64,000 nucleotides of DNA from Atractiella rhizophila (Eukaryota): positions 62,001 through 126,000 of the forward strand of contig MU271231.1 of NCBI GenBank assembly GCA_021432655.1. The letters are read 5' to 3'. Below the pieces are notes generated by a model, which saw only the letters and a program-made list of their open reading frames with translations, ran no database searches and was not told the DNA's origin. How positions within the stretch are numbered: position 1 is the first letter of the stretch; each line of letters starts with the position of its first letter. The position numbers and the translations under genes were made by a program. Below are positions 10,796 through 45,380 of the stretch, piece after piece.

Positions 10796-13700
10796 TCACG
10801 GCATCTTAAACGATGACTTCCAACGCCACCATCCAGTCATCCCGGATTCTGCATCGATCTTCGCGATGCGGTCGAGGCAGTAAGACCACCTAAGACCAAC
10901 TGCCTAAATCCCCTGTGTTGACATAGAGCCCCTGAGCCTCCTTGAATCGCTCCAACGCTTGCTCACGCCTCCCGCATCGAAAATCGATCCTCCCCATAGA
11001 TTGGACGCAGTTTGCCCTCCCAACTGTACTCCCCATCAAGATGTACAGCTCTTCCGCCTCCTTGAATCGCCCCGGCGCTTCTTCGTTCCTCCCGCAAATA
11101 AAATCGATCCTCCCCATGGCTTGGACACAGTTTGCCCTCCCAACTGTACTCCCGGTCAAGATGTACAGCTGCTCCGCCTCCTTGAATCACTCTAGTGCTT
11201 CCTCGTTCCTCCCACATCGCGCATCGATTCTCCTCACGGATTGGACACAGTCTGCCCTCCCAAGTGTACCCCCTGTCACCATGTACAGTTCCTCCGCCTC
11301 CTTGAATCGCCCTAGTGCTTCCTCGTTCCTCCCGTATTCAAAATCGATCTCCCCTATAGATTCGAGGCAACCTGCTTTGTTTTCAATGTCTGTGCTATCC
11401 CTCATTGAGCTATGCAGCTGTTCTAAGGCTTCCTGAATATAACCTCGAAATTCAAATCCCCTTCCTAGGTACAACCACAAGCGGACTAACTCTGGGACAG
11501 ATAACTGCTGGTTGGATAAGGTTCTCTGTAGCAGTTGTGTTGTGTCGAACCCTTGGTAAAGCAAGGTATATGAGTTTGTCAAAAGGAACGCTGCAATTCT
11601 TCCACTCATATCTTGGACATGCAGCAAACTGTCAAAACAACCTGCTGTAAGTTCAAATATTCTTCCCTGAATTCAAGCAATGCATCCGGCTGCTTCGTCA
11701 CTTCGAATTGGTAGATTATTGCTTGCGCTTTGAGTAGTAGGCAGTTAGAGAGAGGTTGAAGGGAGTCTGGGACTCGCAGAGGGAAAGGGGCACTTGTTTC
11801 AAAACAAGTTCGTTGATGTGCCTTCGAACTGGGGCAAGCAGACGCAGGCGGTTTGAGGTTCTCTTCGTCGCAGGTACGTCATCTGCTAGTCCAACATTCA
11901 GAATGGCATCGATGGCACGATAATCTCCAGCAAGTAAGTCCTTCAGGTCGGCTCGTAGGAGACCATCTGGAAACCACGACAGAAATGATAAAGCAAGGAA
12001 GCTGCCCGGCTGTTCTCTGATAACTGGAGAAGCGAGAGAAAATCCAAGTGACATATCGAGTGTAGGAGTACCGTCTCTACCATCTGCGTTTTCTGAAAGA
12101 ACTGCACTAGCTTGGCGGTGCCAAAGATCTAGAAGATATGCCATGCTGGAAGATGGATCATGCTTGGCTCTGAGAGCAAAAAGGCGGATACAGAGAGGAT
12201 GGTAATCTAAGCACGATAAAATCTTTGATGTGACATCAGCATTTGTTGGGTCCCGACCACCTTCATAGAAGTGACAGAAGATATCCGTTGCTGCCGCCTT
12301 ATCCTTCTTCAGTGTGTCAATGACAACATGTACGAAAGCAGCGCTGTTCACGTCGATCCGTGGGGCATGATATCCACGCATGGTGAGCACGAGGACAGAA
12401 CCAACTCCAGGTTCGCCAACGAGAGCCTGAAAGAAATGTTGCATCCGTCCCGAATCTGAACCTGCAGGTGTCTCAAAATTATCCAGGATGAGAAGACATT
12501 TGTTGTTTTGAAAAAATTCAGCGACAGCCATCAAATCCATGATACCAAACTGGCGCGATAGAGCGAAGACCCGGCAACACAAATGGTTCTCAAGGCCAGC
12601 GAAGGAAGGGAAGGCGTCACAACGGACCCAAAAGCGTCGCTCGACAAGAAAATCTCCTTCTCGAACTATGTCATGTAACACGGAAAGCGCAATGGTCGAT
12701 TTCCCATTTCCGGCTAGATTGCTACATGGCGACCCCTCAGAACGGCCGTCTGCACCTCCTCGATCTCCTTCGTTCTTCCATAGCAAAGGCCGCGCGGTGG
12801 GAGAGGCTCCTTTTCATGAACTGCCACTCGATGAGGATGAGCTGCCAGCTTGTCGTGAGTCCAGGAACTGACTGGAGCAAAAATGCACCAAGAATGATAG
12901 ATTCTGCCACGGCCTTCGTTTCATAACCCATTCCACCCAAATAAGCTTTTGTCTGTCCCACAACATCCTTCATCCTTCCAAACTCGTCCCAATCCACACC
13001 CACCATCGTGTCAACGTTGAATCGATGGTAGTGATGGCCAACCCCGCGGCCTTGCATCTCGTTCTTCATTTCTCTGTCGATGCGGGAGCAGTCTTCCACA
13101 ATCTTTTTGAAGGTGTCGTCGACCTCGCTTGGCTTCCATCCCAAGTTTCACCGCAGGTCGAATGCCAACACCCAAGGAGAGGAAACAAATGACTTCAATC
13201 CCAACCCCCCAGATCCCTCTTTGCCTCTTTCGCAGCGAAAAAGGACGGATTATTGTTGCCAACAAGGACGTACGTGGTCTGGTCGAGAGTGACAGGAGGA
13301 AAGAATGCCGGTTCCGCAGATGTTGCTCTTGCAGCGTCTACAATAGAGCACTTGGTTGCGGATCCTCCAGCGAAGGCAACATTGTAAGTGCGCATCTCTA
13401 GGGGGACTACCGAATTGGCTTCGTACGTGGCGATGACAAAGGTTCGACACCGCTCTTCGATGTTAGGATCCGACATTGAATATGCCATCGATTCCAAAGA
13501 GGTAAAGATCGAACTTTCGGATGCAGGGATGTAATCTCTGACAATCCTCTCGAAAACTTCTTCAAGGGCTTTGTCAGAATAAGCAGGTGAGCTGCCTGTA
13601 CAAAGACTCTTCTCGCAGAAGACCCCCTTACGATTTCGTTAAACGCGTCCATGCACTCTCGGACGGTCATGCCCACTCGCCCGAGCATCAAAGCAATCCA

Positions 13701-14141
13701 CCCTCCAGTCGATGTACCGCAGATGAGGTCGAAGAATTGACATGGTCGAAGGGTTCCAGGATCTGGCTTCCCAGGAAGGAGATTGGCGACTTGCTCCATA
13801 ACGGCCTCGAGCATATAAAGGCAAGAGAAAGCGCAAACACCTCCATTGTCGAACGAGAGGATGCGGAGACCTTTGCTATTAACTTTCTTGATATCCACAA
13901 GCCGTTTGTGCAGGTCAGGGTCGATCATCCCGTCTCCAATGCAGTTTCACGTGGCCGGCAAAGGGTTTGACTGCTTCGATGGAGGAACAGTTGGCTGCGT
14001 AACGCGGGGGACGACGGTTGTGATGGTTGTGCTTTCAGTCGCGGATTGTTTAATTGGTTCAGAACTGAACCTGTCAGGTTTTTCAGCCTCTTCTGTGTCA
14101 CGGTCAATGTCGGAAGATGTTATGTTGGTGGCAGCCTACAT
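10796..14141 (-). pseudogene. NLR-like gene 1: patatin-like domain + STAND (NB-ARC-like) NTPase + TPR repeats
   Basis: Patatin: RILSFDNGG, FDLICGTSTGG, AARATSAEP.FF, GNNNP. A 47-bp intron (12842-12888) follows. NTPase: P-loop ...AGNGKST with an approximately 7-bp deletion near 12715, FWVRCD, Walker B LLILDNFETP, YHPLCIRLFA. Four 120-bp TPR units at the C-terminus. In-frame stops at 14136, 13947 and 11187, plus several frameshifts. Confidence 0.9.
10900..11380 (-). repeat. Four tandem 120-bp (40-aa) TPR-coding units of NLR 1
   Basis: CCTCCTTGAATC recurs at 10937, 11057, 11177 and 11297. Consensus GRANCVQSMGRIDFRCGRNEEALERFKEAEELY. Confidence 0.95.
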
Positions 14142-14859
14142 TCCTCGAAAGGTTCTCTGTGACTTGTGACTGTCCACTATTTAAGAACCGATGTTCAATA
14201 CATTATTCACTCCACAACAACACAGGACTGTAGCGTACAACCTTTCGTCATCACAAGGGAGCATTGTACGCGACCAAAACCTCATTCTCAGAGAGGACTC
14301 CGTCAGGTTACAGTTTCAGAAAAGCTCTTAACGAGGAAGTCAAGAGTCTACATACAACCAACTTAGGGATTCGGCAGGAAGGGTCAGATGCCATAGGCTG
14401 CAGATGAAGGAATGTGAAGAGTTGAAATACGTTTGACATCTCCCTGGGTAGACAAGGGTAACAAACGCCTCTATGCTTTTGCCGAGGTCCAATGTTCGAA
14501 GGACTGGCGGTGCTATGGAGCGCTTGCTGGGTAACAGGACGGGGGATGGGGCCAAAGCCAAATGTACCAATATCACTCTACTCAGACCCATCTAGCTACC
14601 ATGCTTGTTCCCACTGTACCAACTTGACATCCCCCAAACCAGTGTATTAGCACCTTCGGCAGTATCCCAATTGTCAGTCTATTTAGGAATGCAAAAGGTT
14701 TTCCTCTCTTTCACCACAAATGGGCTTCGATATTGCTCTCGTTTTCGTCGTTCGGGAGATTCGAACGCCCATTGTTGATCCACATTGATCAGATAAAGTA
14801 TCTCATGGCTTTGTCCAACTTCTTTCTCTTTGTTTTATTTTGTGAAGAACATTATATCG

Positions 14860-15225
14860 CTATTCGATTTGCAGGGCTGAGAAGGAAACCGTCAGCTCAT
14901 CAGTGCCTTCTCCTTCTGAGGGGCGACAACAGTAAACTCCAACTTCCACCAAAGCATCCTGCTCCCCAAACGCCCAAGTGACTTCTCTGACACCTGACCT
15001 CTTCCCATCCTCTCCAACGATGTACACCCAGAGCGCCACTCCCTTCCTATCGATTTCAATCGTCACTCTGCTGGTGCTGATGGGTACAAGAGACCAGTCA
15101 GATGTCACCGCACCGCCAGCTGGTGTTGCAACCGTTTGACGGCTATCGTAGACTTCGATGCCTGTTTTGATCCAAGCCGGTGTATCCGTTCCATCAGGGA
15201 AGAGCAACACAAGTCCGCCCTACTC
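14860..15225 (-). CDS. DUF1349-like (beta-sandwich) protein, C-terminal part
   Basis: GGLVLLF...WIKTGIE...DWSL...LWVY...REVTWAF...VGVYCCRP matches the fungal DUF1349 pattern. N-terminal exons were not identified. Confidence 0.65.
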
Positions 15226-15332
15226 CGATCTACAGGAGACAGCAAAAGAAGCGGCATCTCATAAGTCCAGCCAAGTCCAAAGCTGGCCATTTAGCTCCGC
15301 CTTCAGCGCATTGGAGATGAGCTCATTCACAC

Positions 15333-18300
15333 TCAGCTCAAAACTTCGAATTCAAACCCTCCTCTGGTGACTTCCTCAACACGTCTCTCCCAATCCCCAA
15401 CACCTTCATCACCTTCATCACCTCTTCCACTCCCCCATTTTTTCTGCCCTCCGACTCCATACACCTCGCTACGGCCGAATGATTGAGCGGCACGATTTAA
15501 CGCGATACACCGCCACACCTTTTGAGCTTCTACCCCTAGGTGGGTTATGATGATGCCCTGCAAGCGGAAGAGTAGAAAGACAGTAGGTGGGGATGTGCTT
15601 CCGCTCTCAGCACCACTGCGATGCTCATCCTTTCCTCTTGAGGATATCCATACAGCTTAAAATATCCCCTCTTGCCCACGAAACACCGTTTTCAGTGTCC
15701 CTCCATGTCCTCCCTCTGCCGCATCCGACCTGACCAGTCCTTCTGCTCCAGAAGCTCTATTTGGATAAAACAGAAGGAGGAACGAGAGGGATTGGAGGTG
15801 TGGCATCCACTCCGCGCAGCGAGACCCCTTCGAACGCGCATTCCAACGATTTGAATGAGCTTTATGTTGTTCTTAGGAACAAGGAGTTACGTTATCGTTC
15901 AGGTGTGATGCTCTCGATCAGGTCTCTCAATCGTTCGCAATGTTCGGTGGGGAAAGCGTCATTATAGACATCGCAACCGACGACGACAACCTCTCCCTCC
16001 TCCTTTTCCTCGATCCAAAACTCCTGATAAGACCCCACCCTCCTCTCCGCTCCCCTCAGCTCGATCTCCCTAGCTCCATCCATCTTCCCTGGTGCCCTCG
16101 TCTCCAAAACACCAACAACAGGCAGCTTCAGATTCGTACCCTCCCTCGTGTCCGCCTTCGCCTTCGGTACCCTTGCATGAGAGATCCACACCGCACCCTC
16201 GCTACACCTGAGCAACACCGCTCCTCCCCTTTCCCGACAATCTCTCCCGGTGCCGTGTTTCTCACCATCCCTTCGAAAGAGGACGGCGAGGGTTCGACTA
16301 TACCACCGTACAGGAGCATGGCGGGAACTAGCGCCTTGCTCAAGACTCCAGGTTGGGAGTCGGACGCGCGAAGCTGACGGGAGACGGAGGAGGCGGTCTC
16401 TATGACAGGGTTGAAGTCCCTCTCTGCCGGTTTGAGGAGGGGACGGCTGTTGATGGGTCCGTTTCCTGATCCTGGACCGGAGGAGAATGAAAAAGAGAAG
16501 CTAGAGGGAGGAGGGGAGGTGCGGTGAGGTGCGGAGAGAGAGGGAGATAGTGCCATCAGTCGCTCCTGCCATAGCTTGCACCCTGATCCATACTTCCGGA
16601 ACTGGTTTGCCAGTGATCAAATGTTGAATTTCTGTCCTCTTTCCAGGAGATACTCAAAAATGAGGTCCAACAGCTCAATGGGCAATGCAAGAATGGATGA
16701 AGCAGTCAGAACTAGGTGTTGTTGCTGAGTTGGAGGAGGTTTGTTTTCCTTTGGGAGAACAGGCTCAAGGGGTGGAGGAGGATGTTGTCCTTGCACCTGA
16801 ACCTGCTTGTTGTGCAGCAACCACAAGTTTCCTCCTATGGCAGAAGAAGATCCTGGATGTGGCACTTTGGTGATTGCTTTGAGCCAAAGCTCCTCAAAAG
16901 GGTTCAGCACACTTGTGTACTGAGTCTTGACATGATTGACGGTTGCATGGAGCGTTGAGGATCTGAAGGATTGATCTGCAAGCCCACTGCCTGCGCAACC
17001 GTTGGCCACTGATTCTTCTGCGTTGTAGAGAGGGAACCACTGTGCGTTAGGACCGCCTAGAACAAACGGAAGTGATCAATCCTCTTCCCATCGATGAAGA
17101 GACCTCCCGTGATGGGAGTATTCCTGTGCTTCATCCAATCTTGAAAGGCCCAGCGAAATGTGTCTGGACGCAGCTGGGTCTGAACGAGCTTCATTGGAAT
17201 CTCGGGCTGAGTGTTAGATGCTCCCGTGCGGGCAGGAGTCAGGTCGAAGTTTTGATTGTTGTTCGTTCCACCAAAATAATTCATCTCGCTGCCGTAAGCA
17301 GGAGTAATTTCCTGTACAGGCAGAAAGGAAAAGTTGGTAAAGATTCAGAACCGATCAATGCTAAACATTCCTTTGCTCCTGGCAGCAGACCCGTCGCCCC
17401 CTCCATTCATCCCTCCTCCTCCTCCGAAACCCAGACCCAAAATTCGAGCGTGGGCTCGGCGTTGGCGTCTTCCTCAGGCTGTGGTTCAAGAAATGCTGAA
17501 GGATCGTTGTTATTCCCATTCGAACTCGATCCAGGGGCAGAAGGTCCAACAGAAGGCACTCTGACTCTGAATCCCTCGAGCGCGCTGTTCGCGATACTGT
17601 GGGGCATGGAGGAGGATGCGGAGGTGGCGCCGTTGGTGTGGCTGAGAGCGGAATGGGACAGAAGCATGGAGTTGACGAGTTGTTGAAGGAGTCTAAGGAG
17701 CCTGAGGAGGGGGGAAGGAGGGATGTGGATGGAGGTGGATGGACGGGTGGGATGGGGAGACAAGTGGCGTGCTGGAGACGAACCATGTGAAGTGGACACT
17801 CCATTGCTGCATCCAATCAAGCCAGGTCAGATCGTCCATGTAGCGTTTAAACGACTCACGATTTTTTTCTCGAACACCCCTTCCTCGTTCCTGCGCACGG
17901 GACACATTTATCGATACCAGTGATCCAGTAACATTTTACCCCTTCCGAGTGGCACCTGGAACACGTCAAATTGTTCGGATCGAGAGATTTAGCCGTCGAC
18001 CAGGAGGAAGAGGCATAAGCACCTCCTGAGCACGATGCTCCAGTTGAAAATCTGAGGGGCAAATCGAGGGAAGTGGAAGACCTCTTTATTGGATCAGAGG
18101 GCTGGCTGGGTGATAGATGGGACAGCATAAGATTAGTGGACGTCGAGGGACCAGCTCCGGTGAGTGAAGGGATGGAGGATAAGCCAGGTGGAGATTGGGA
18201 AGAACCTCCCGCTTTCAGCATCTCTCTCAGATCAAGGTTTAGACGGAGGAGGGTTTCTCATGTCCTGCTGTCATACCTGACTTGGTTGTCCGCTCCCACT

Positions 18301-18450
18301 TCCACCCAAACCCATGCTCAAAGCCGAACCAGCGCTCGGTCCAGCCCCTCCTCGGGACCGGACACTCCCAATCCCGCCAATCCACCCATGTCGAGCGTAC
18401 GATTACTAGTTGAAGTCATAGACGAGGCTCCCAAGCCCATCGACATCCCT
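15333..18450 (-). CDS. Multi-exon low-complexity protein(s) with a Zn2Cys6-like cluster and an F-box-like motif; structure unresolved
   Basis: CSRCHSEGVKCYWITGIDKCVPCAGTRKGC (about 17870-17965) and ILALPIELLDLIFEYL (about 16645-16695), with Ser/Pro-rich linkers in co-oriented ORFs. Confidence 0.45.
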
Positions 18451-18589
18451 CCAAGTCCCCCTCTTCCCCCACCACTACCACCAGCTGCGAGGTCAGGGAG
18501 GATGTTACCGAAGAGTGCAGAGGGTGGGGGGAGAGAACCAAAAACCCTTGAGCTCCACCGGCAGATTTGTTTCGCCCTTCACTTCAGTT

Positions 18590-19534
18590 TCAGCGACACC
18601 ATGCGAGACAATCAGGGAGGCTGTCCAGCTGACGATGTAGAGCACATCCTGTGGCGGCAAGGACGATCCCAGCGGTGGCGAACAGCCGCCTGGTGCTTTC
18701 CGGAATGTCGGGGTGGGAAGCCACAGAGGCTGCGACAGCTCCACAGGCAACAAAAAGTGCCGAGTAGCGCTTGAGGGAGGTGACTGTTCTGGTGAAATTA
18801 GAGCGAGGACGAGGATGAGTTTCCATTAGCTGACTCTGTGGATAGACTTCGAGAATGAGTCGTCGTATTTTGATCTCCAAGACTTCGACGAGGATCCCAG
18901 AAGTGAAGAAAAGGCATGATACGGATGATATGACCGTACCAGTGACAGCGAAGCCGCTCCTGACTTGGATGGGAATGGTAGGATTCACAGCGATGGAAGC
19001 CGCAAGAGCTGAGAGCCCCAAGGAAGGATTCGAAGCCTTCCTCAACTCTCGCAACTGCCTCGCGAAGTAGGTTAACCGCAAATACATAGCATAACGTCTT
19101 GAAGCATCGCGGTTCCGGGCCACCCTCCCAAAGCTGTCAAGTTGGACACGCGGACGACGCTCCAGCAGTTCAAGTCGTAGTTCCAGCGAGAAAGTGAGAC
19201 TGCGATGCACTAGATAATACCGTCCTTCCACGTCACGATCCAGATAGAACGTGTCTGTTATATCTCCTCTTGCAACTAAGTCGTGGCTTGGGTCCTCACA
19301 TACAGCTAGGAACGAAGACGCAAGTCGAAGATTCGCGCCCTCGAACTTCGTAGAAAGGACCCTGAGTTCAAACCGCACAAGAGGATAAGTGTAATTGTCA
19401 TATATTCGTGAGACTGCATGGGTTGCAGAACTCTCGCTCTCGTCCTTGAAGCTGATGTTCCACAACGATTCCTGTGTCTGTGTCATGGAAGGATTGGTCG
19501 GGGAATGGTACGACAAAAACTCCTCCTTAGTCAT
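18590..19534 (-). CDS. Hypothetical membrane protein with two related hydrophobic hairpins
   Basis: Uninterrupted 348-codon ORF (likely ATG at 19534). Internal repeats LSALAASIAVNPTIPIQVRSGFAVTGTVISSVSC and CGAVAASVASHPDIPESTRRLFATAGIVLAATGC. Confidence 0.6.
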   Translation of the reverse strand: MTKEEFLSYHSPTNPSMTQTQESLWNISFKDESESSATHAVSRIYDNYTYPLVRFELRVLSTKFEGANLRLASSFLAVCEDPSHDLVARGDITDTFYLDRDVEGRYYLVHRSLTFSLELRLELLERRPRVQLDSFGRVARNRDASRRYAMYLRLTYFARQLRELRKASNPSLGLSALAASIAVNPTIPIQVRSGFAVTGTVISSVSCLFFTSGILVEVLEIKIRRLILEVYPQSQLMETHPRPRSNFTRTVTSLKRYSALFVACGAVAASVASHPDIPESTRRLFATAGIVLAATGCALHRQLDSLPDCLAWCR

Positions 19535-20444
19535 TGCGTGTCCATCCCGTCCCAGACAAGCTAGCAAACTCACAGTGAGTGACGCTCGAAATTGATTGAA
19601 ATGACATTTATAACATACACAAGGTATTTTCTGCAATATTCCGTGGTGTCAAGAAAGTTGGCGATGGAGGAGTCCTGGTCAAGGCCGTCGAGCTAGAGGT
19701 GGCCGCAGATTCCTCCTCCGTTGTGACCTCTCTGGGATGTTGTGATGGTGGCATTGGGGATTGAAAGCGAATTGAGGGAATTATCTCCGCTTAAGGGCGG
19801 TGTAACAAGGCTAGCCTTCTGTCAACGTCTTTCCCCTTGCTGATGACTGTTGAATTCAACAAACTCCAACAAAGAATTACACCTACAAAGATGTGGCGAG
19901 GCCAAGGAGTTGGAGAGGGGAATAGTTGAGTTGATGGTGGTGAGGGAAAAAATAGAGGATGACGAAGCCCTTTCTTCGGCGGTGATCACATGAGGCGCAC
20001 AGGAGTAACAGCAGGGGTACATCATCAATGGAATTCAGATGAACTCCATCGCAATGTTTTGGGGTGAGATTGGCCTAACAGGGATAGTGAGGAAAGCAGA
20101 CAATGATAGATTGGACTGGAGTTCTCGGCAAACTGGTCGCCCCGAGGGTTTTGCGCTCAATTTCGTGGAGATTTGCGCCGCATCGGGCTGCAAACACAAA
20201 AGTGGTCAACATCGAATATTATGGAATGCAAAAACGTAGTAATGATTAATGATTCATCATGGACATAATTTAGACCGATCCAGTGTCTATGAAAAGGAAT
20301 GTTTCTGTCTCTGAAGCAAAAAATAAATAAATAAATAAAGATATGGGTATGTCGAAACTTGAAATGTGATCGCACCTTCCGACATCAATACCCAATGTGT
20401 TTTCCTGTTAAGTCGCTTGAACGCAACGTATATGATGCTGTTGT

Positions 20445-20975
20445 TGCCCTGTATAACATGTAATAACGATGAGTGAACATTAAAAAAGCGGAGGACAAAA
20501 CACACACCTCATATACATCAAAAATGCAATTCCACATTGCTTCGCCATTATCTATCGTATTTTAGACGTGAGTAGCGCGAATGGGAGGCCTGAGATGTAG
20601 ATTCAACGACGTATAATGTGTATTGAGAACGAGCAAATATTAAAAAAGCGGAGGACAAAATACGCGCCTCATAAACATCAAAAAACGCAATTCCTCATTG
20701 CTTCGCCATTATCCATTGTTTTTTAGACGTGAGAGCGAGGAGCGATGGGCTTGGGGGCTAGATATTACTATGTATAATGCGTAATAAGAGTGAGCAAACA
20801 TCAAAAAAAAGCGAAGGAAAAAATACGCACCCCATATATGTCAAACATATGATTCCATATTACTTCGCCATTATCCATCGTATCTCAGGCGTGAGTACAT
20901 CGAATGCGAGGCCGGAGAGCTAGCTATCACGATGTATAAGGATTATTAGTATTGAGGGGATATTAACAAAGCAGA
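20445..20975. repeat. AT-rich tandem repeat, about 161-bp unit, about 3.2 copies
   Basis: AAAAAAGCG.AGGA.AAAA.AC.C.CC.CATA...CTTCGCCATTATC.AT.GT...AG.CGTGAG recurs at about 20482, 20642 and 20805. Confidence 0.85.
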
Positions 20976-21520
20976 GCATCAACTCACATTATATTTACAT
21001 TGTCTGACTCCGCAACAGTGCATTCAGTCCTCTTGCAACTGCAGCTGTAATTGATCAAATAAAAGCTCAAAATTTGCCTTTGCTTTAGAATAGTTGACGT
21101 AATCTTTATAAAAATTTCAAAAGTGGAGGCTAATGCATTATTTGTCCCAGACTGAAAATCACAAAAGATATCCATTCGCATCTGACTACTCACTAAGTGA
21201 ACCACTACTTTCTCTTCCCTGCTTCAATATGCAACCTTTCTTTTGTCAAAACCCAGTCCATCTTTTCCTCTACCCATGTCATTGCCATTCGCATGTTGAC
21301 CATCTCCACCGATTGATCAACATCTGGCACTTTCCCATCCTTGATATCCGTGAAAAACTTCTTTACCGCATTCTCGTCTATGCTCCACTTCCCCAACATA
21401 TTCTTGCAGAGTGGGACATTGCGTAAGTTGGTCTTGGGCAGTGGGGACGGAACTTTGGACCAATGCATAAAGTTGTCGTCACAGACATTGCGCTTGTGGT
21501 TGTTTGTATTCTTCTCACCA

Positions 21521-23383
21521 CAAGTGTGTCAGTGCCCTCGTCCCTCGGGCATCCCCCCCCGTCAGGGGCCTCGCCCCTTGGACCCCAGCCTCCGGCGGCC
21601 ACTGCGTGGAGCTCTTGCCTGTGGCAGCCACTGCGTGGGGCCTTGCCTTCGGCGAGCACAGACTCACCATATGTACTCTACTATCTTCAAAAAACAATGA
21701 AAGCTAAGTGGTCTCCTCGTACCTCAGAGAACTACTTCAGCTTTTGACTATACTGTTAGGAACATGCTGAGAGATGATCAATGATTGAGTACTTGTAACA
21801 CTTCCTTGTAAACTACATAATCTGTTTGCTTGTTTTCTTCTCCTTGCTTTGTTTTGACCAATACTCGTAAATTGTTTGCGTTTGAAACCCGCGAAAGACC
21901 AACATAAAGCTGCAATTGAGAGAAAGGAGAAGACTCTAAGTACAAACCCACATGTCCAACAGATTGTCCTTGCGCTTTATTCAGAGTTAAGGCAAACGCT
22001 GAGTGCACAGGGAATTGAAAGCACCAGAATTGAAAAGAAAGCTGGTTTGATACTGCACTGTCAATGCAGATTCGAGGAATGAGAACTGATTCGCCACTGT
22101 GTGCACCTGTAATGATGGTTGCTTCAATGACTCGTCGGAGAAGCTGAGTGACAATGAGCCACGTGCCGTTGCACAGGCCAGCAGATGGATTGAGATTTCG
22201 CAGAAGAATGATCGGTGCACCGGTCTTGAGGTGTAAACGATGCGAAGGGAATCCAGAGATCTCCAGGGTATTCAGGTACTCAACAGAGAAGCAATTTCTG
22301 AGATCTCCCTCGTCATCTATAATTTGATCTGTACTATAATATACCCGATCTCCTATGGATTCGAGCCACTGAATCAAGCGATCGTTGATGCCATCCACAT
22401 GATATGGGCATGTGGTAGACCTCTCTTCTGACATTCAATGACCCAGACATATCTGATAAACCCTTCCAAAGATCTGTCATACCACAAAATCCTTGATGTA
22501 CTCCAGAGCCTTCAGTCGAAAAACCCTTGAAACCAAATCTGGTCCATCCTCTGGTTTTTGTCCTGGTAGGAGGGCTTCTATGATCTCTGCCCAGTGTGGG
22601 TTGCAAGTGAAGGTTGTAAAGATATTTGGGGGTCCTTTGGCACCAACTATACCCATTGCATCCTGGAACAGCTGATTCATTGAACGTGGACTGCCAGTGA
22701 AACTTGATGGTAATATAGTCCGCCTCCCATATCTTCTAAAGAATAGCCTTCTGCAAGGGCATCTGTAAGACCTTGATACACCTCGGCTCGAAGAATAGAC
22801 TGATTGAACCACACATAGCGGAGTCAATTCGCCTCAATTTGAGCATAAGCATCGACTACCAATTCTTGCAGTAGCCGACCACCGTAGAGAGGGAGTGAGA
22901 ATATATCATTTCGTTGATGCAACATGTAAGAATAGAACGCCATTTGGCTCACATGTTGTCAAACCTCAGAATTACCAACTTGCATGCTGTCATCATTGAA
23001 GTGCTCTCGCTCGCGAGGAGGAAGATCTGCAGGCAGGTCTCAATACGGAATCTGCAGATGCCATCCTTGGTCCCCATATAGAAACAGAAGAGGAAAACAA
23101 AGTGGAAGATAATTTGAGTGAGCTCATTCACATGCTGTAAGTTGCTACCAATCGTGGTTGCCCTGAGCTGGATGACAATATCTCTGGCCACTCCATATTC
23201 TTCTCTGTTACTGTCTCCTACCATCACTACAGCAACTTCACTGGCTACAGGAATGTTGTAGCGTCTTGGGTCCCTATCTCGTGGGGCGAGTGTGCAAAGA
23301 TGTAGTGTTGCAGTGGGATCCTGTTCCATTCTTTCTTTTGCAAATTTGTAGATCCTGGGGTATGGGTTGACACGGAAGAGCAT
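21521..23383 (-). mobile_element. Helitron copy 1 (5'-truncated, internally deleted Rep-helicase pseudogene)
   Basis: Motifs RYNIPVASEVAVV, LPSSFTGSPRSM, IFTTFTCNPHWAEI, PDLVSRVF, GLPHAHI, PIILLRNLNPSAGLCNG, AFALTLNKAQGQS, QLYVGLSR. 3' hairpin followed by CTTG|T at 21521. Near-identical to 56471-58340. Confidence 0.92.
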
Positions 23384-24571
23384 CTTCGAGAGAGGACAAG
23401 GCTCGAAGGGTTTATCTCTTTTGCTTGTTATCACAGTTGAATGCAGATCTTCATTTTTGCTGAGTCCAGTGGTTGCGTATTAGGATGAACGAAACCTTGG
23501 ATGAGATGGTCTTTGCCATGGTGCGACCATGTAAGCGTGCATTCTAGGTATTAGTGAGGTCGCTTATCCCGGACTAGAGGGAGAGTTCGAAGTGGGAATA
23601 AACGTTTGGTGGGCAAACACCGAAGCGGCTTAGTGAAAAGGAACTAGGACAGCAGACTAGTGGTTTTGCAATGAAGAAAAAATGCGCTTTCAACACTATA
23701 ATTGACCCACAGTACACTAAGCAAGCACAGCGCGAGTGAGGAATCATATTTTCATCTAAACTTCCCCTTTTATAGTTTTTCTCCTCTCCAGCGCTCCACC
23801 TGGCTCCCCCTCAACGTCTGATCTCCTACATCCTTCCCCTAAGTCCTACATTGCCCCATTTCCTTGTATCTTGCCCAGATTTTCTATCTTGTTCAATCGC
23901 CATTGTCTTCTTATTTAAGGTTAAGATGGAGTTTCTATTGGTCCTTGTCTGTTTTTCCTTGTTCCGATTGAATTAAAAACATGGTTGCGGAGTTACACGT
24001 TGCATGGAAGTACGTAATTTGGTTGGTGTTGCAGTGAAATAGGCCACATGTCCGTTTTTGACGTACGGTTGTCACGTGATAGTATGTACGGACGGGACGG
24101 GGTACGTCATTAGCAAGCTTGTCCAAAGAACAATCAGGAACTTCAAAATCACACTTTTGAAGATTTCATGAGGACAAAGCGACTAAATTGATCCCTTTTT
24201 GATCCTATCCTAAGTAACTGTAAAGCGCAAAGAACTGCAACAGGCACCACAAACAGATACCTCTCAGTACTGAAGACCAAGGAATAAAAATGTAGACTTT
24301 AGGTGTGGACGATAGCTAAGAACAGACGTCACGGATTTGGTTTGTTTTTTTTTTCAACCGAAGCCAAAGGGGACCGTACGGATGAGAAACGAAGGAGGAT
24401 ATCGAATTAAGCAATAGTAGAAGGCATGATGGATGGAAGGATCGGTGGTTGATTCGTTGCGTATATCGATGGATGGATGGTTGTTTCACGAGTGAACAAA
24501 TGATGAAGCAAACAACAAGCAAAGCCCTTCGAAACAAAAAACAACGCAGTGATTCTCCCACACCTTTCATT

Positions 24572-26415
24572 TTATCCTTTAAGGATAGTTAGATCTATCT
24601 CGCCATCATGTTCCTTCTCTTTTGTGCCAATATCCGACGACGAGACGTCATGTAAGTCCTCGTCTTCCTTGTCAGGAAAAGTAGCGACGATGGGGGCGTC
24701 GACGAATGTTTCGGTTGGCGGCCAGAAATAAGAGAGTAGGGAATAGATGATGATGGTGAGGACGATACCCCAGAGCCAACCCACGAGGAATATCCATTCT
24801 ATCGATCCCACATCCACTGAATCGCATCGCATTCAATCAGCATTCGACAAAGACATTCACAACAGAGGGAAGAGACGCACACCATCAGGGTTGATCGATT
24901 GAATCAATCCAGGGAACGCGGGAGGTACGACGAGAAGAAGTGTAAGGCCAGCGCGCCAGTTAAATCCGCCCTGTCATTACCAACCTTTGCATCAGCCAAC
25001 CATTTCGTGTTTCCATCGAAAAATAGAAGGAAAGCGAACATAATATCTGTACCTTCCATGCGGATTGTAAATAGCTGGGACATCGACTTTCCACCTTCTC
25101 AAGATCCAAAAGTCGGCAATCATCAGTCCAGCAAATGGTCCCAGGAAGATCAGCCAAAACCAGAATGAGAGATGAAGGATGTGAAGGAAAAGAGGATACT
25201 CACCGTGTATCCGTTCATGAAGATCAAGAAATTCTTTCCAGTGCTCAAAATTTCCAAAGGAGCCATACACCATCCACCGATGAGCGCACAAATGATCGAT
25301 CCTCTCCTGATATTGATCCATATGGGGAACAGAGTCATCAGGTCTATCACGACGAATCACAAATAATGCACCAATTTCTACTCTTGCGAAAAAGGACACG
25401 CACCATTGGCACCACGAATCGTGTCACCAGTCACATTGACCGAGATCTGAGCAACTGCCCATGCGGCAGAAGCAAAGAAGACAGCAGCTCTGGAATCCCA
25501 CTTGGCAATAATGGTAAATGGGGACCAGAGATAAGTACCATAGACGTCGTGAGAACAAGAGGCACCAATGATACCGAAGAGGCCAGTGATGACATAGAAG
25601 AAAGGGAGGGTGACCAGCTGGAACCACTGCCAAAGTGGACGCTTGGTATAACCAGAGAAGTCGGGACTACATGGCGTCATGCTTGAGCTTCTTTCCCGCA
25701 GAGGAGTTGGGGAAAAGTACATGTTCACTGCTACAGTGGAGTAACCGCCGATGACGGAGTTGAGAGAGAACAACCAAGCGTGGGTGAACGCGGCGCCATG
25801 CACTTGAGACTTCGCAGCGAGTAGAGCTCCTCCTCCTCCTGCCTTGTCAGCGATCCAAGCAACGGTGGCTATCATGACGCTAACTTTCGGCCGTGAGCAC
25901 AGCAGTATACTTGTACAAGAGGAGATATGCTTACGCAGGCACAACCAGGACTTTAAGAATGAAGAGGAAGCGGAGTTTGGAGGGATGGATGAGGAGGAAG
26001 GGGTACTGTAAGAGCCAGAAGAGGAAGCTATATTCAAGAAGTGCCTTAGAATGTCTCTTTTAAATTTGATGAAAAGTAAGGTGCTAGGAAAGCAATTGCT
26101 GGCTCGTCACTCCTCCTCCCTTTGAGAGATGATTGGGAAAGTGAGCTACGAGGGCCAAATAGCTCGAATCAAGCCAGTGATTGCAGATCCACCTGTGGCG
26201 CCACATCAATCAAACTTGCAAGCATTGAATCAGAGAAACAGGGCGACATACCGTTCCAAGTGTTGATGCCGAACCAAAACCAGCTCAATATCAACCTCGA
26301 AACGACGGCAAAGAGTGAAAAGTAATATCCGAATGATATGCGAACGGTCATCGGGAAGGGAATGTGAAGGTAAGCGCCAATGGCACCATTGAGGCATTTT
26401 GTCAGTTATCCTCAC
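24572..26415 (-). CDS. NCS1 family nucleobase (uracil/allantoin-type) permease, multi-exon, N-terminus not found
   Basis: NGAIGAYLHIPFPMTVRISFGYYFSLFAVVSR, GGYSTVAVN/PDFS, GANDLMTLFPIWINIRRGSIICA, IFLGPFAGLMIADFW, FNWRAG. About 9 short introns. Confidence 0.88.
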
Positions 26416-26828
26416 TCCAAACAAACAAGGCACAATCTCAATTTCAAATGAAACGGTCTAAAGAAACAAGAATCTCCACGAACCCTCGTCTACTTCGCAA
26501 ACTCCCCTCCCAAACACGCCATCATAAAAATCTACGACTCGGCCACCAATGGAGGGGGGCATTAGGAATGCTGCAATTCACTGAGTTTGCATCCTATTGT
26601 ATTCTCTGTGCCATCCCATCCCAGGAGTCCCGCCATCTCCCACAAGCTGGCCTCTCGCCGCTTCCTTCTGGGTGCAGGTCAGAAGTGCTAACTGCTCTTT
26701 GCCCTGAAGCGCTGAGCAGCATCTGGGGTGAGCCTTCTGCCCTGTCCCTTTCTGTGCGGTCTGGCTTACGTGTGCCTCTCATGCCCTGCCTGGATCAGCT
26801 CATCTTTGTTATACAGCAATCCAGGCCC

Positions 26829-27866
26829 TCAAGCAAGCACGATCATTCCGAGCACCAACAGGCATACACCCCACCACTCCGTTCTCGTATACCAACTCAT
26901 TGTGACGCTGCCGAAGGAGCTACTTGCAAAGAGTCCGGCATGAGGATATTGCTTCAAACGAGCATGCCTCTCCTTCATAGATATCATATCACCTAAATAT
27001 GAGACTGAAACAGCCTTCCAGAGCTGACAGACGGCAGAAAGTCGCTGGAAGGAAACGAGATATTCATAAATAGATTCGGTAACCATATCGAATTGACTAA
27101 ATGAAAGGAAGTCAAAGATGAGAGAGAGAATCTCAGTAGGCAGCTTTGTGTGATCGTGCATAGACTGATCCCTGGAGTTTGAGTTCGGGAGAGCGAGAGT
27201 TGGATGGTGGTCCCCAGACCGGTGGATGGGATGATTGATTCCTCCCATTTGCTGAGGGGAATGAAGCACCACTCCTTAGACCACAGGGCAAATTGTTGGA
27301 AGACGAGCTGAGGGCGATTCTCTGCAAGATGAAACGTGCATGTGAAGGGCTTCAGAGACAGGTACTGAGAATCCACGGATGCATGGTGTTTGGTATCCCC
27401 AAAAGTTACCCCAATACTTTCCTCTTCCAAAGTGATGGAAAGGTTCATTGTGTCGTCGCATTCGAATGCATTTTCGAGACCTTCCAGAAAGAAGCAGGAC
27501 AATCTCGACAGCCCCATATTGAGAGCCCCAGAATTGAAGAGGTCAGACAACGTAATCTGGAGCATTTGAATCGATGCATGTAGGTGAGCAAGGAAAGAGG
27601 GAAGGATGAAGAGATGTTGCGGACCGCCAAGTCGCAGTGCTACTGGGGTGATGATATGGACCAGTGCGATGGACTCTTTTCCCTGATCATCCTCCCGTGA
27701 AATCAATGTTTCCTTCTCAATCTTTCCCAGAAGAGAAGATACACCGGACTGAAGCCCACGAATGCGTGTTAAACAAGACAAGAGAAGGGGGAGGAGCATA
27801 TCATGCCTGCAGCGCATCAGCGCGTTGTCCAGCCATCTCGACGTTCTCCGTACAATGATCAGACAT
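26829..27866 (-). pseudogene. Truncated F-box gene, paralog of 43524-45380
   Basis: Collinear with the N-terminal domain and F-box (KLPTEILSLIFDFL...FQRLSAVCQLWKAVSVSYL) of the 579-aa ORF. Frameshift near 27150. Similarity stops after YPHAG (about 26935). Confidence 0.82.
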
Positions 27867-28922
27867 CACAGTCGTGATGATGGAGATCGCAAAGCCGTTC
27901 GTGGGAGTGGATGGTTTGGCAGACCCTTTGCCTCTAGGGTCGGAGTGCGTCGGAGTTAAAACCGGTCGACCAGTTTTGCGCTTCAGTTTTATGCTTGGGG
28001 CGATGGGTCTGCTAGCAATGCGAAGATCTGATTGATTTCTTCTGTAGAAATTTCGTCCCGCCTACTTCTCCACTGTGTATCGTTGAACAATGAACGTTGG
28101 TCTTTGTCCACGACCGGCTTAGGCTTCCCCAAATACAACGCGAACGACGACGGGAGATGACACGATGCTTCTGGAGTCATAGTCATGGTTGAGAGTTCAG
28201 TGGCAAACACGCAGAACGTTACGATTTTCAATGTGGTGATTTTGAACACCTTTGATTTTTATGATAGCTTCCTCATCGCATCTCCACGAACCTCTGCATC
28301 TATGTAACAGTCAAGTTGCCTCCTCCTTAATGCTTGCCGTCTCAAAGGTTAAAAGTTGAACGGATTCTGCTGCGTTGTTGGTTGATCCCCCCCTATGTAT
28401 CTTCACCGCCATCCATTTCTGAATTCTGACCCAGACAAAACGCCATTCATCGTGTGGAAAGATGGACACGTATCAACCGAATGCAAGAATAAACACGATT
28501 CAACTGCATGCAAGCTCATCGCCATTACAACCCCCGCTAACTGTGGGCAGGTATTACGTTTGTCCCGTAAAGTAAATCTGCAACGCATGCCAAGGCATGC
28601 AATAGATTGTGAAAGGCAGGGGAAATGGAGGGAACATGTCTGCCCGAACCTACTTCCACTGACTTGAGTGAACAACGTGCACCAACAGAAATGTATTTTT
28701 TTGAGGAATGACTGAAAAGGGGCCTGGCAATGAATAACGGTTTGAGGACTGTTCTGAGGGATGGGTAGGCAAATTGATGCGTTAGCTCCGTTAGTTCCGT
28801 GGACCGTGGAAAGCAAAGGAATGGGAATTGTGACATAGTACGGAAGTTATTACTGTAATCAATTAGTGCATCCCCGAAGTTTGTAAAGAGGATCCAGCGC
28901 ACTCTATGATGATTTAGTGCAG

Positions 28923-31900
28923 TCACACTACACCAGCATCAGCCATGGACGCTTTGAATACCTCCCTGTAGAGCTCCTTTGCCTGCTTGAACGCCTTGAG
29001 AGCGTCCTCATTCCACCCACATTGAAAATAGATCTGCCCGACTCTGACGATGCAGTTTGCTTGACCCTGTCGATCTCCCACATCCATATACAGCTCCTTT
29101 GCCTCCTTGTATGCCTTGAGAGCGTCCTCGTTCCGCCCACATTGAAAATCGATCTCCCCGACGTAGGCAACACACTTGGCTTGACCCTGTCGATCTCCCA
29201 CTTCCACATAGAGCTTTTGCCTCCTTGAATGCCTTGAGAGCGTCCTCATTCCGCCCACATCGAAAATCGATCTTCCCGAATCTAAAGACACAGTTGGCTT
29301 GACCCTGTCGATCTCCCACATCCACATAGAACTTCTTAGCCCCCTTGTACGCCTTGAGAGCGTCCTCGTTCCCGCCATGGTCGCAAAAGCAATCGCCAAG
29401 CAACAGTGTCAGCAAACACTTCAGTCCTAACCAATCCGACTGTTTGTGGCTCGCAGAAAGTGGCACTTCGAGGGTCGTATCCATGACATACATCGCCTGC
29501 TGGAAGAGTGGAGTTGAGAGCCGGTGTTTCATGCGTAGGAAGCTAGATATGTTCGCCAAGCGCTGAAGGATTGGTAAAGGGTCTGGTAGCTTCAACATGC
29601 TTGTGAGAAGGACATGTTCAAGATTCGGATATTGTTCGTGGAAGACAAGCAGTGCATAATGATCCTTGCCGAATTCGAACTGTTTGATGTTTGTCTCGGC
29701 TTTTCCCATGAGATGGTTCACAAGCGGCAGGAGTGACGAAGGTGCAGTCATCGAAAATGGCAGTGTGGAACGAGAGACAAGGCTGTTGAGATATTCGCGA
29801 ATAGGAGCGAGCATACGTAGAGTACCTTTGATGTTATCGGCAAGTCCAATCTTCGAAATCACAGAAATGGCCTTGAAGATATCCTGAGATTCATAAGAGC
29901 TGGAAATGAGTGCTGACAGATCATGACCAGTTAGGCCGTCTGGCACCCATGAAAGTAGTGCAAGGGCAAAGACAGCACGCTCCCTCTGCTTCTTGAGAGC
30001 GGGAGAATGGAGGGAGAATGATATTGACGTTTTGAGCGTGATGGGGTCTTCGCTGTCTTCGTTCCAGAAAACTACTGTCTTTTTCTCCTTCCACTCGTCT
30101 ACCAGTTCTTCGAGTGTCATAGTTGAATCCCCGTGCGCACGGAGAGCGAATAGCTTGATGGATAGAGCGTGGAAGTCTAACCGTTCAACTAGCTGTTGGA
30201 CTACCCGTAGCGAGAACACGTCGTCGCTTTGATATGACCCCTCGAAGAGTGCGAGTGCGCCGTCTTTCGGCAGACCGCCAACTGAGATCTTGATGAACTT
30301 CACAGGCTCGTTCCCTTTCACGTCCAAAGGTTCCACTTTATCTCCACGATGGGCCACGACGAGTACCGACCCCGACTGAGTTGTTCGAGAGGAGTGTTCG
30401 GAAGAAGTGTTGTTTTTTGTTTTCGTCGGCACGCAAGGGAGTCTCAAAGTTATCTAAAACGAGAAGGCATTTTCGACTTCTGAAGTAATCTGCCACGATC
30501 TCTAGCGATGTTTTGCTAGACGTTTTTTCAATGCGAAGATGTCTTGGCAGATGTGGTCAGAAAGCCTGGTAAAAGTGTCAAAATTGTCGCAGCGAACCCA
30601 GAAGCAGAGATCTTGTCTAGTACCCCGTGTCAGATCTGTGAAGGACTGCTCAATCTCTTTGCAGTGCGCGGTGTCGAGTGCAACGGTGGATTTGCCGTTT
30701 CCAGCCCCACCCACAATCGCGACGTGGTGCCCATGAAGTATAGCTTCTCTAGCGCGATGGATCTCATCTTCCCGGCCAAAACAAGAGCCTGGCGGCGGTA
30801 ATGGCATCGGTCGACAAACTGCGATCCGTTCACTGCACACTACAAGAACATCTACACGGTAGCTACACGAGTGGTAAGAGAACATACCCTGCGCGAGATA
30901 TTCAGCAGCTTTACGCGCTTCGTGACCCATTACTTCTATATAGGCCTTGGTACGGCCTACGACGTCCTCCGTTCGCTCCCACTCCTCCCACTTGATTGGA
31001 CTGAAAAGCGGTGGTAGCAATGCCCTAGACCTCCATGCTGCATCCTCATCTTTAACTGATCCGCGACCTGGGAACAATCTTCGACGATGGCTTTACAGCG
31101 GCTTCAATCTCGCCTTTATCACGACCACACTTGACGACAGGAGCTAGACCTGACCCCAGAGAGACGAGACAGGCGACTTGGCTTCCTTCTCCCCAAATGC
31201 GCTTGGACTCGTCAATCGCCATTGCCTCCGGGTTATTGTTTCCGATGGCAACGTATTTCACTTTGTCGATGACGATAGGAGGAAAGAATTCAGGAGCAGA
31301 GGAAGTTGCTCTTGCTGCTTCCAACACTGTACATCGAGCAGCAGAATGAACTGCATTGCGGCCGTCGTACGTACGCATCACTGTGGAAACAACTGCGTCT
31401 GATTCGTACCTTGACACAACAAAAGTTCTGCATCTATCTCCGATTGCTGCATCCTTCATAGGAGGTTGAGAGGACGATACAGACGATGGAGCGTGTCGTG
31501 CAATGATCTCGTGGAGGATGACTTCGAGCGTCTTTGTAGAGTACGGGTGGCCTTCTTTCGAAAGTGCATCATCAGAAAAGACATTCCGCACGATCTGTTC
31601 GGATGCGCTGATGGATTGTCGAACTGTCATTCCCAACCGTCCGAGCATGAGGGCGATCCACCCTCCCGTGGCAGTGCCGCAGATGAGATGAAAACATCGC
31701 ACGGACGAAGTTCTTCCCCTTCGGGAACTTCGAGGAGATTTCCAACCTGGAGCATGATGACTTCGAGCATGTAAAGGGTGGAGAAGGTACAGATCCCTCC
31801 GTTGTCGATGGCAAGGATTCGGACTCCTTGTTCGTTCACCTTTTTGACGTTCTCCGGGACTTTGAATATTGTGGTAGTTTGAACATGGGAGGCGACCGAG

Positions 31901-32169
31901 GGTGAGAAAGCTATTGGAGTAGGCACTTCGAAAGAAATGGGCTCTGCGGTACGTGAGGCGGTGCGGAATTGTTGGAATGGGCCAGGTCGACGATGCAACT
32001 GCAGCACCGAGAAGGTTTGAACTTCCTCGCGTTCGACCGATGGAATTGTGTGGGATTTGTCCCTAAGCGGGTTATCATCGTCAGGCAAAATCCAGTGGTC
32101 ATCATGATCTTGATCGTTAGGGTGTGGCGAAGACGGCCTGAGCATCTTTGCAAAGGTTGAGGTATCCAT
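28923..32169 (-). pseudogene. NLR-like gene 2: patatin-like domain + STAND (NB-ARC-like) NTPase + TPR repeats (frameshifted as assembled; may be intact)
   Basis: RILAIDNGG, LICGTATGG, AARATSSAPEFF, IGNNNP, VSLGSG. Intron at the same position as NLR 1 (about 30835-30882). FGREDEI, Walker A GGAGNGKST, FWVRCD, Walker B LLVLDNFETP, then about 3.5-4 TPR units. About six small indels, mostly in homopolymer runs; no nonsense substitution found. Confidence 0.9.
28960..29380 (-). repeat. Tandem 120-bp TPR-coding units of NLR 2
   Basis: GCCTTGAGAGCGTCCTC recurs with spacing 120, 118 and 120 bp. Consensus GDRQGQANCVxxxGxIDFQCGRNEDALKAYKEAKELY. Confidence 0.95.
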
Positions 32170-43523: not shown

Positions 43524-45380
43524 TCACTCCTCCCCACCTTCTCGAACCCATGTGACTTTGTTGAATTGGTCGTCCTCGTCTACAAACTCACTCAACGTGC
43601 TCCTAGCCTTGTATATCTCGTCCTCCAGCCACCCTCCAAAAAATAGCTGAACCCTCAAATAGCGCTTACTCATGGTTTTCACCATTTCAGCCCCATCCAC
43701 CGTATCCCCCTCCTCCTTCACCCCCCTGTCCCCAAAAAACCAGCAGATGAAGTCTGAGAATACGAACCCTGTGAATTCCCAGTCCACCACACAGTACCAA
43801 ACATCTAGGGTTGTTATCGCTATTGCATTTGTGAGGGTGTGGAAGAACTGGGGGGACACGAGGTTTGAAGTTTCCTCACCACCGTCGAGGTAGAGTTGGG
43901 TGAGATGTTTGAGGTGTGATAAACCGAGCGGACAGGGTAGGATGGAGATCTTTCCCTCAGGCAAGTAGGGGGCGAGGGTGATAATGAGCCGTTCTAGAAG
44001 AGGGGGCAGACAGGAGCCTGAGACCGAGGGGGGCAGCGGACACAGTTTGGAGAGACCCAAGTATGTGAGGGTGAGTGGCAAGGCCAGCGATGGGAGAGGC
44101 GGGTACTTGTGAAGCGTTAGGCGTTTGAGGTCAGACGATAATTCAAGGCCTGGTGATGTTGACGAGGCGCAGTCCTCCACGTCGAAAGCACAAAAGAATC
44201 TGATCCTGTCACCCATTCTCCGTGTAAAATTCTCGACCTCATCCTTCTTCCACTTCCTCGAACCTTCTCCTCCAAACCATACTGTATCTAACTTCCTCAA
44301 GCGTTCAATCACATGCAACACAATCCTCGCCTCCTCTTCATTCCAAAGTGCATCCATGTACACGTCCGTAACATGCAGCGCGCCGGCGATGACGTCTTTC
44401 GCCATCTCACCGCTGATGTCATCGTCCTCACTCACAAACGAGAGATATGTCCACAAACGCCCGGCATTAGGGTAAGCTGTCAAACAAGCATGCTTCTCCT
44501 TCACAGAAACATTTTCATGCAGATAAGGGACTGAAACAACCTTCCAAAGCTGACAGATGGCAGAAAGTCGCTCAAAGGAAACGAGATATCCAATATCTTC
44601 TACGACCCTGTCAGATTGATCGAATGAAAGAAACTCGAAGATGAGTGAGAGGATCTCAGGAGGAAGGTGTGCGATACTGCATAAACTAATACCTGTATGT
44701 CGAGTTGTGGAGAAGGAGAGTTGGATGGTTGTCGCCAGACCGGTTGATGGGATGGTTGATTCCTCCCATTTGCTGAGAGGAATGAAACGCTGTTGCTCCT
44801 TGGAGTACAGGGCAACGGGTTCAAAGAGGACCTGAGAGCGGTTATCTGGAAGATGAAAAGTGCATGTGAAGGGCTTCCAAGACAGGTCCTCCATTTCCAC
44901 GGATGCATGATGTTTGGTATCCCCAAAAGTTACCGTAATACTTCCCCGCTCCAACACGATGTAAAGGTTCATTGCGTCGTCGCAATCGACTGCATTTTCG
45001 AGACCTTCCACAGAGAAGTAGGATGATTTCGATGGCCCATAACGCTCCCTCCAGAATTCAAGAGGCAAGACAAACGTGACCCGGATCATGTGAATTGATG
45101 GAGGTAGGCGAGAAAGGAAAGAGGGAAGAATGGAGAGGTGGATCGGACTGCCATGTCGTATTGTTACTGGGGTGATGAGATGCGCCAGTGCGATTGACTC
45201 TGTCCCCTGATCATCCTTGCATGAAATCGATGTTTTTCTTTTTTTCATTCTGGGAGAAAACACGCTAGACTAGAGCACACGAACGCACATTAAACGAGAC
45301 AATGCAGAGAGATGAAATCATGCCTGCAGCGCATCATTGCATTGAACCACCTCGACGTTCTCCGCGCATTGATCAGTCAT
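43524..45380 (-). CDS. F-box / LRR-like protein with uncharacterised N-terminal domain (about 600 aa)
   Basis: Intact 579-codon ORF with IAHLPPEILSLIFEFL...FERLSAICQLWKVVSVPYL followed by LxxLxL repeats. Predicted exon 1 at 45324-45380 (MTDQCAENVEVVQCNDALQ), joined in frame by a GC-AG intron (45270-45323) conserved in the paralog. Confidence 0.85.

Follow-up and report, generated by a model that had tools for sequence, protein, structure and literature searches.

Canonical patatins work as Ser–Asp dyad hydrolases. In fungi, Neurospora crassa PLP-1 and the ascomycete patatin–NB-ARC–TPR NOD-like receptors (NLRs) carry a patatin domain followed by an NB-ARC-type P-loop NTPase and then by TPR units; where they deal with patatin, reviews of fungal NLRs present this head as an enzymatic effector, that of PLP-1 being essential for cell death (PMC10197012, PMC12881547), and one of them credits Heller et al. 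with the finding that PLP-1 cell death requires patatin activity (cited in PMC12881547). Here we analysed a stretch of 64,000 nucleotides (nt) from Atractiella rhizophila (Pucciniomycotina; GenBank assembly GCA_021432655.1, contig MU271231.1, positions 62,001–126,000; hereafter the window), which holds on its minus strand two loci with the same order of patatin, P-loop NTPase and TPR parts, copy 1 (approximately 10890–14141) and copy 2 (approximately 28923–32169). Both loci, which the initial annotation had described as two NLR genes, are multiply broken pseudogenes, and neither is a working gene. Overall, the data are best explained by old, diverged pseudogene copies of a patatin-NLR family whose patatin domain is non-canonical and was maintained, a reading that we consider probable.

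Each of the sequence motifs listed in the initial annotation was found at its position on the minus strand (Table 1), and the identity of the domain held up, with matches to Pfam Patatin of 28.8 bits (N-terminal piece) and 26.2 bits in copy 1 and of 38.5 bits in copy 2, against a cut-off of 27.7. The 3′ parts of both copies matched TPR_12, TPR_2 and TPR_11. For the intervening NTPase part, the broken pieces gave only a weak match to AAA_16 (E 0.007) and none to NB-ARC; the Walker A motifs are visible, and the relatives P0169 and P0170 carry PF00931. Copy 1 and copy 2 have unrelated flanks, and because, apart from the TPR units, they resemble each other at the DNA level only over 225 nt of the patatin core (67.6%), a recent tandem duplication was ruled out as their origin.

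An uninterrupted coding sequence was found at neither locus, and the motifs within each copy fall in different reading frames. The lesions were mapped with paralog proteins as tblastn guides, which produced adjoining blocks that switch frame; because these blocks adjoin without a gap, the frame changes are not introns. In copy 1, three in-frame stops are accompanied by six frame changes, near 13626, 13217, 13150, 12715, 11788 and 11635. Its paralog P0001 (626 aa, partial), which is 93% identical to copy 1 over an 85-aa piece (13626–13880), reads through those copy 1 lesions that fall within its own length. Copy 2 has at least five frame changes: beyond those given in Table 1, there are two in its NB-ARC part, in which the frame of the model leads to LAKHR and a stop, and one more in its TPR array. 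The disabling lesions are not the same in the two copies. Because both are multiply broken, neither window locus signals through anything.

Copy 2 is nevertheless represented by a deposited protein model, P0022 (KAH8927303.1, 464 aa; window 30505–32169), which matches it letter for letter in six blocks and crosses its frameshifts by invented introns of 44, 31, 83 and 67 nt. Because of the invented intron at 31661–31704, the predicted protein has no nucleophile motif. The model stands in the database as a 464-aa 'FabD/lysophospholipase-like protein' although the locus is a pseudogene, an instance of how deposited gene models can mask pseudogenes by invented introns.

The changes at the active site are shared across a family of paralogs. 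Searches with the N-terminal piece of copy 1, the patatin piece of copy 2 and P0012 as queries returned approximately 21 A. rhizophila family models (P0001–P0012, P0016, P0020, P0022–P0026, P0028 and P0035), together with P0168, which is a C-terminal fragment, and P0029, which is a sister patatin; this particular patatin–NB-ARC–TPR family has so far been seen only in A. rhizophila. Motif columns were read from one MAFFT alignment of 165 domains, in which a few rows may be misplaced. Asp was absent from the dyad Asp column in 17 of the 18 family rows that cover it; the column holds Ala, Leu, Thr or Ser, always together with a loop shorter by two residues, and P0006 (FDNNDGVYNP) is ambiguous at this position. 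The family thus reads YVxxGN-NNP against the canonical YVDGGxGxNNP, with the Asp gone and two residues fewer. The oxyanion loop is DNGG in 10 of 12 family rows and DNSG or ENGG in the remaining two, and the canonical Arg position is variable (C, A, Y or H, with R in P0010). Scaffold residues do not vary within the clade, and the elbow of the nucleophile, the helix AARATSxxP.FF and the motifs NNP and SLGxG are conserved. The Ser of the G-x-S-x-G elbow is present in copy 1 and, as GTSTGG, in all 13 close paralogs, and is absent from copy 2. The Ser replacement (GTATG) that the initial annotation noted in copy 2 does not extend to the family: it is private to a dead copy and uninformative on the family as a whole. 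The family-wide alignment proposed there gave members that mostly lack the Asp and read DNGG, none of them demonstrably intact.

Several family models (P0002, P0005, P0007, P0008 and P0011) end in out-of-frame tails. The C-terminal tails of P0002, P0005 and P0008 match the out-of-frame (frame 0) NB-ARC translation of copy 2, for example '...AAKMRS..LEKLY...GNPPLHSTP..', and these three models are therefore also wrongly framed after the patatin domain. The sole long relative found, P0166 (A. rhizophila, 1235 aa), combines BAG, NACHT and TPR domains; its NOD/TPR part is 34% identical to that of copy 2, and its N-terminal domain is unusual for a fungal NLR.

A FastTree phylogeny was built from 155 rows and 256 columns (SH-like support; root not inferred), leaving out the ten rows with fewer than 200 aa (P0004, P0010, P0016, P0017, P0023–P0026, P0035 and P0140). 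The 14 A. rhizophila rows in it group together in a single clade (local support 97), and P0029, which keeps YVDGG and DSGGLRG, is the first branch within that clade. Because there is a single clade in which the Asp-keeping paralog branches first, the simplest reading of the tree is that the Asp was lost once, after the split from that sister. The claim of the initial annotation that the two defects are shared and older than the duplication is upheld: wherever a close A. rhizophila paralog covers the columns concerned, it has the defects.

Substitutions were compared between copy 1 and copy 2, as representatives of the two main subfamilies. The proportions of non-synonymous and synonymous differences (pN and pS) were 0.26 and 0.82 in the N part of the patatin domain (54 codons), 0.37 and 0.75 in its C part (131 codons), and 0.44 and 0.68 in the NB-ARC part (165 codons). 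At the amino-acid level, the subfamilies share 49% identity in the patatin domain and 35% in the NB-ARC part. Because patatin pN is 0.26–0.37 while pS is saturated, the altered domain stayed under purifying selection after the change, in line with the retention of the domain that had been claimed at the outset. With low pN, saturated pS and invariant scaffold residues, most of the divergence postdates the loss of the Asp and accumulated under purifying selection, whereas stops and frameshifts came late and are specific to each copy.

The fold of the domain was examined on P0007. Its HMMER alignment to solved CapV-type patatins sets 'KYIAVG--NNNP' against 'EYVDGGLFANDP', so the dyad Asp column corresponds to Ala279 in P0007 (Leu in copy 1) and is followed by a two-residue gap, which confirms the absence of the Asp and the shorter loop noted in the initial annotation. 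For P0007, an alignment of 89 rows gave an AlphaFold2 (AF2) model (pLDDT 81.9, pTM 0.80) that had CapV, patatin-17, CapE and iPLA2beta as its best Foldseek matches and superposed on 8zr9, 1oxw, 9ion and 6aun with a Foldseek probability of 1.00. Judged from this model, the patatin fold is intact in the family. In the secondary-structure string of the model, Ala279 directly follows strand 275–278, and position 279 would thus be placed like the DGG motif of canonical patatins. The family has the profile match and the predicted fold of patatins and lacks both the Gly-rich loop G-G-G-x-[RK]-G and the dyad Asp motif D-G-[GA]. Three features of the catalytic site are altered together: Asn stands at the first oxyanion Gly, the Arg is variable, and the Asp is lost along with a shortening of its loop.

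Several observations weigh against the reading of a maintained, non-canonical domain in genes that broke later, and we consider them here with the alternative explanations on which they bear. If the frameshifts were assembly or sequencing errors, both loci could be intact, expressed NLR genes. Two of the frame changes do lie inside G runs (approximately 13626, with G5 where G6 is expected, and 13217), where an error is possible in principle. Reads were checked through short contigs assembled from a single sample (two DNA runs), with many paralog contigs alongside, and among the listed contigs identical to the window none spans a frameshift site. The same runs yielded contigs that match the window exactly over five listed stretches elsewhere, and the paralog contigs have one base more at 31689 and one base fewer at 13217, which fits a shift in the window copies themselves and does not prove it. 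Several lesions are not homopolymer errors at all, being the 7-nt deletion at the P-loop, the multi-nt deletion at 30993–30996, and base substitutions that create TAG and TGA stops. More than 11 lesions are spread over the two loci while a nearby 581-aa open reading frame (ORF) is open, so long ORFs in the window are not broken in general, and annotators could model copy 2 only with invented introns. We consider error as the source of the lesions extremely unlikely. Plain decay would be a different account of the shared changes: a progenitor that was already dead would have spread, for instance along with mobile DNA in the vicinity, and its domain would have been neutral since. None of the approximately 21 family models is full-length, many have out-of-frame tails, and the region has Helitron-like repeats and a high paralog depth. 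The longest model, P0012, has 731 aa on a 3.9-kb contig, against approximately 1,050 aa expected. A search of longer proteins with the NB-ARC/TPR piece gave only P0166 and an unrelated match, and P0012 found no family member above 731 aa among proteins of 402–1280 aa; both full-length searches were word-limited to 8,000 candidates, so that absence from them is weak evidence. With no demonstrably intact member found, it is possible that the whole family is extinct in the A. rhizophila genome. The saturation of patatin pS, in addition, means that pN and pS stand in for a true omega. Neutral drift since a dead progenitor is nonetheless hard to reconcile with subfamilies that have reached saturation at synonymous sites at so low a patatin pN, with only three stops in the approximately 1,050 codons of copy 1, with scaffold motifs that are invariant among paralogs of 40–50% identity, and with two copies that carry different lesions between unrelated flanks. 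We regard decay alone as very unlikely.

The remaining alternative accepts that the window copies are dead and holds that the family domain is still an active acyl hydrolase, in which the retained Ser works with a relocated Glu, Asp or His, or with assistance from the substrate. The full conservation of the GTSTGG elbow is unexpected for a dead active site, and strict retention of the Ser is not predicted for a fully dead domain because other fungal clades that lost these motifs have usually replaced it. Two acidic residues are specific to the clade, E235 (conserved in 12 of 13 clade rows and in 0 of 142 outside) and E227, and either could act as a substitute base. Purifying selection on the domain and its confidently predicted fold would also suit an active enzyme. 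What speaks against it is that the glycine, the arginine and the aspartate with its loop changed jointly. The conserved Asp of 'VIDK' (D273 in P0007), moreover, would lie in the turn before strand 275–278, at the opposite end from position 279, and in the only two outgroup rows that show the Gly-to-Asn change, P0048 and P0162, which belong to separate clades, the Ser has gone as well. On balance, continued hydrolase activity is conceivable and, in our judgement, doubtful, and we favour the view that the patatin head of the family is probably a pseudo-lipase without canonical Ser–Asp catalysis. On this pseudo-lipase reading, the domain in functional ancestors and in any surviving intact members would no longer be a canonical Ser–Asp phospholipase; most likely it would be a non-hydrolytic or weakly hydrolytic head that binds lipids or membranes, and NB-ARC oligomerisation would bring such heads together. 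The scaffold, lipid-sensor and decoy roles put forward in the initial annotation are candidate functions. Gains and losses of copies would drive turnover of the family in a region rich in repeats, with the window copies as two of its casualties.

Patatin heads that depart from the canonical motifs also occur in other fungi. The comparison set consisted of 143 non-Atractiella representatives of 50%-identity clusters. Among the 136 in which both dyad columns are filled, 108 keep both Ser and Asp and 28 lack one or both. Counted singly, the Ser is absent from 28 of 141 representatives, the Asp is present in 126 of 138 and absent from 12, and the first oxyanion Gly is present in 108 of 117 filled rows. 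When 18 non-canonical proteins were scanned with Pfam, seven had NB-ARC, NACHT-type or TPR domains, some of them being full-length NLRs: P0127 of a Serendipita cluster (NB-ARC and TPR; neither Ser nor Asp), P0138 of Hypsizygus (TPR only; Ser kept, Asp to Gly), P0105 of Ceratobasidium (TPR and DUF7779; Ser to Gly and Asp to Gly), P0048 of Rhizoctonia (NB-ARC and TPR; DNGGARG and GAGTGG), P0081 of Mycena (NB-ARC; Ser to Gly), P0054 (NPHP3_N; Ser to Gly) and P0146 (TPR; Ser to Gly). That an NLR family retained its fold under selection once the dyad Asp and an oxyanion Gly were gone, taken together with similar losses in 28 of 136 representatives, suggests that catalysis is not always what the patatin domain contributes. 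As a tentative extension, which we think is less than an even prospect, patatin heads unable to run the Ser–Asp mechanism may be a recurrent, selectively maintained feature of basidiomycete NLRs, with at least four separate such clades (Atractiella; Serendipita/Hypsizygus/Ceratobasidium; a GSGDGGW group; and the rust GVGTGG clade). If this were true, patatin-NLRs could signal or sense without lipid hydrolysis, for example by oligomerisation-driven membrane binding or as baits for lipids or effectors. A search of the accessible literature on patatin pseudoenzymes, and text searches within PMC9815663 and PMC12258605, turned up no account of fungal NLRs whose patatin head is catalytically non-canonical. 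Among the non-canonical proteins, Pfam finds only Patatin in the rust proteins P0113 and P0164 (Melampsora and Puccinia), which read GVGTGG, and the Flagelloscypha protein P0031 pairs its patatin domain with a dsRNA-binding motif.

Table 1 Features of the two patatin–NB-ARC–TPR loci and of their surroundings in the window.
Feature	Position	Strand	Remarks
Copy 1, patatin–NB-ARC–TPR pseudogene	10890–14141	−	3 in-frame stops, 6 frame changes
Copy 1, stop TAG at codon 2	14136–14138	−	Trp in paralog P0001
Copy 1, in-frame TGA	13947–13949	−	Ser in paralog P0001
Copy 1, oxyanion loop DNGGVCA	13830–13850	−	canonical DGGGxRG
Copy 1, nucleophile elbow GTSTGG	13701–13718	−	Ser codon TCG retained
Copy 1, motif AARATSAEPAFF	13300–13335	−	
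Copy 1, YVLVGNNNP	13246–13272	−	Leu at dyad Asp column; loop shorter by 2 residues
Copy 1, SLGVG	13164–13178	−	
Copy 1, P-loop (Walker A) AGNGKST	12694–12714	−	frame shifted by 7-nt deletion just upstream, about 12715
Copy 1, TPR array	10936–11362	−	120-bp unit, 3.6 copies, 81% matches; in-frame stop inside
Copy 1, in-frame stop within TPR array	11187–11189	−	
Copy 2, patatin–NB-ARC–TPR pseudogene	28923–32169	−	at least 5 frame changes
Copy 2, oxyanion loop DNGGICT	31786–31806	−	
Copy 2, frame change, 1-nt deletion	31690/31693	−	FDLICGT broken into F and HLICGT; extra base in paralog contigs
Copy 2, nucleophile elbow GTATGG	31661–31678	−	GCC instead of Ser codon
Copy 2, motif AARATSSAPEFF	31283–31318	−	
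Copy 2, YVAIGNNNP	31229–31255	−	Ala at dyad Asp column; loop shorter by 2 residues
Copy 2, SLGSG	31148–31162	−	
Copy 2, frame change	31091/31094	−	one G missing in AAG GCC
Copy 2, frame change	30993/30996	−	multi-nt deletion
Copy 2, genuine intron	30841–30888	−	48 nt, in-frame, between EYLAQ and VCSERIAV; spliced in paralog models
Copy 2, P-loop (Walker A) GAGNGKST	30685–30708	−	
Copy 2, TPR array	28969–29372	−	120-bp unit, 3.4 copies, 85% matches; frame change inside
Helitron-like inverted repeat pair	21520–23383 and 56471–58341		94.5% identity over 1,875 nt
Pif1 2B-domain ORF in Helitron-like repeat	21781–22434	−	
Pif1 2B-domain ORF in Helitron-like repeat	57544–58080	+	
Helitron_like_N ORF	57022–57519		inside second Helitron-like repeat
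Purine/cytosine permease (PF02133) fragments	24995–26106	−	between both NLR copies, in separate ORFs; profile positions 216–303 and 357–394
F-box-like paralogs	26935–27928 and 44461–45439		77% identity over about 1 kb
F-box-like ORF	43527–45269		581 aa open; longest open frame of the window

The surroundings of the two copies hold few genes; fragments of Helitron-like elements, of Pif1 and of a permease are present, as are F-box-like paralogs (Table 1). Between 20.3 and 23.6 kb, the summed contig depth exceeds that of single-copy contigs by a factor of 50 to several hundred. A contig leads from 22240 into TTAGGG repeats, and other Helitron-like copies may therefore adjoin telomeres.

Among named architectures, the nearest to the window loci is that of the ascomycete relatives P0013, P0015, P0169, P0170, P0174–P0176 and P0179. 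In the ascomycete proteins P0013 and P0015, the oxyanion loop reads DGGGxRG, the elbow GTSTGG and the dyad column Asp, whereas the Atractiella clade reads DNGG and has no Asp. A PLP-1/SEC-9 system would be expected to have a linked SNARE; in the window, 59 ORFs outside both loci reach 130 aa or more, and no member of the SNARE (SEC-9-like) family was found among them, a search that short exons may escape. The window copies are, moreover, pseudogenes. With the wider PF01734 fold (patatin, CapV, CapE and iPLA2beta), the family shares the Pfam match, the elbow, the AARATSxxP.FF helix, NNP and SLGxG. It departs from that fold in having Asn in place of the first oxyanion Gly, no conserved Arg, Ala or Leu in place of the Asp, and a loop two residues shorter. 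The other basidiomycete non-canonical patatin heads belong to separate clades of the tree, carry different substitutions and have mostly lost the Ser, whereas the Atractiella clade kept the Ser, lost the Asp and shortened the loop; were such heads indeed a recurrent feature of basidiomycete NLRs, this clade would represent a distinct intermediate state.

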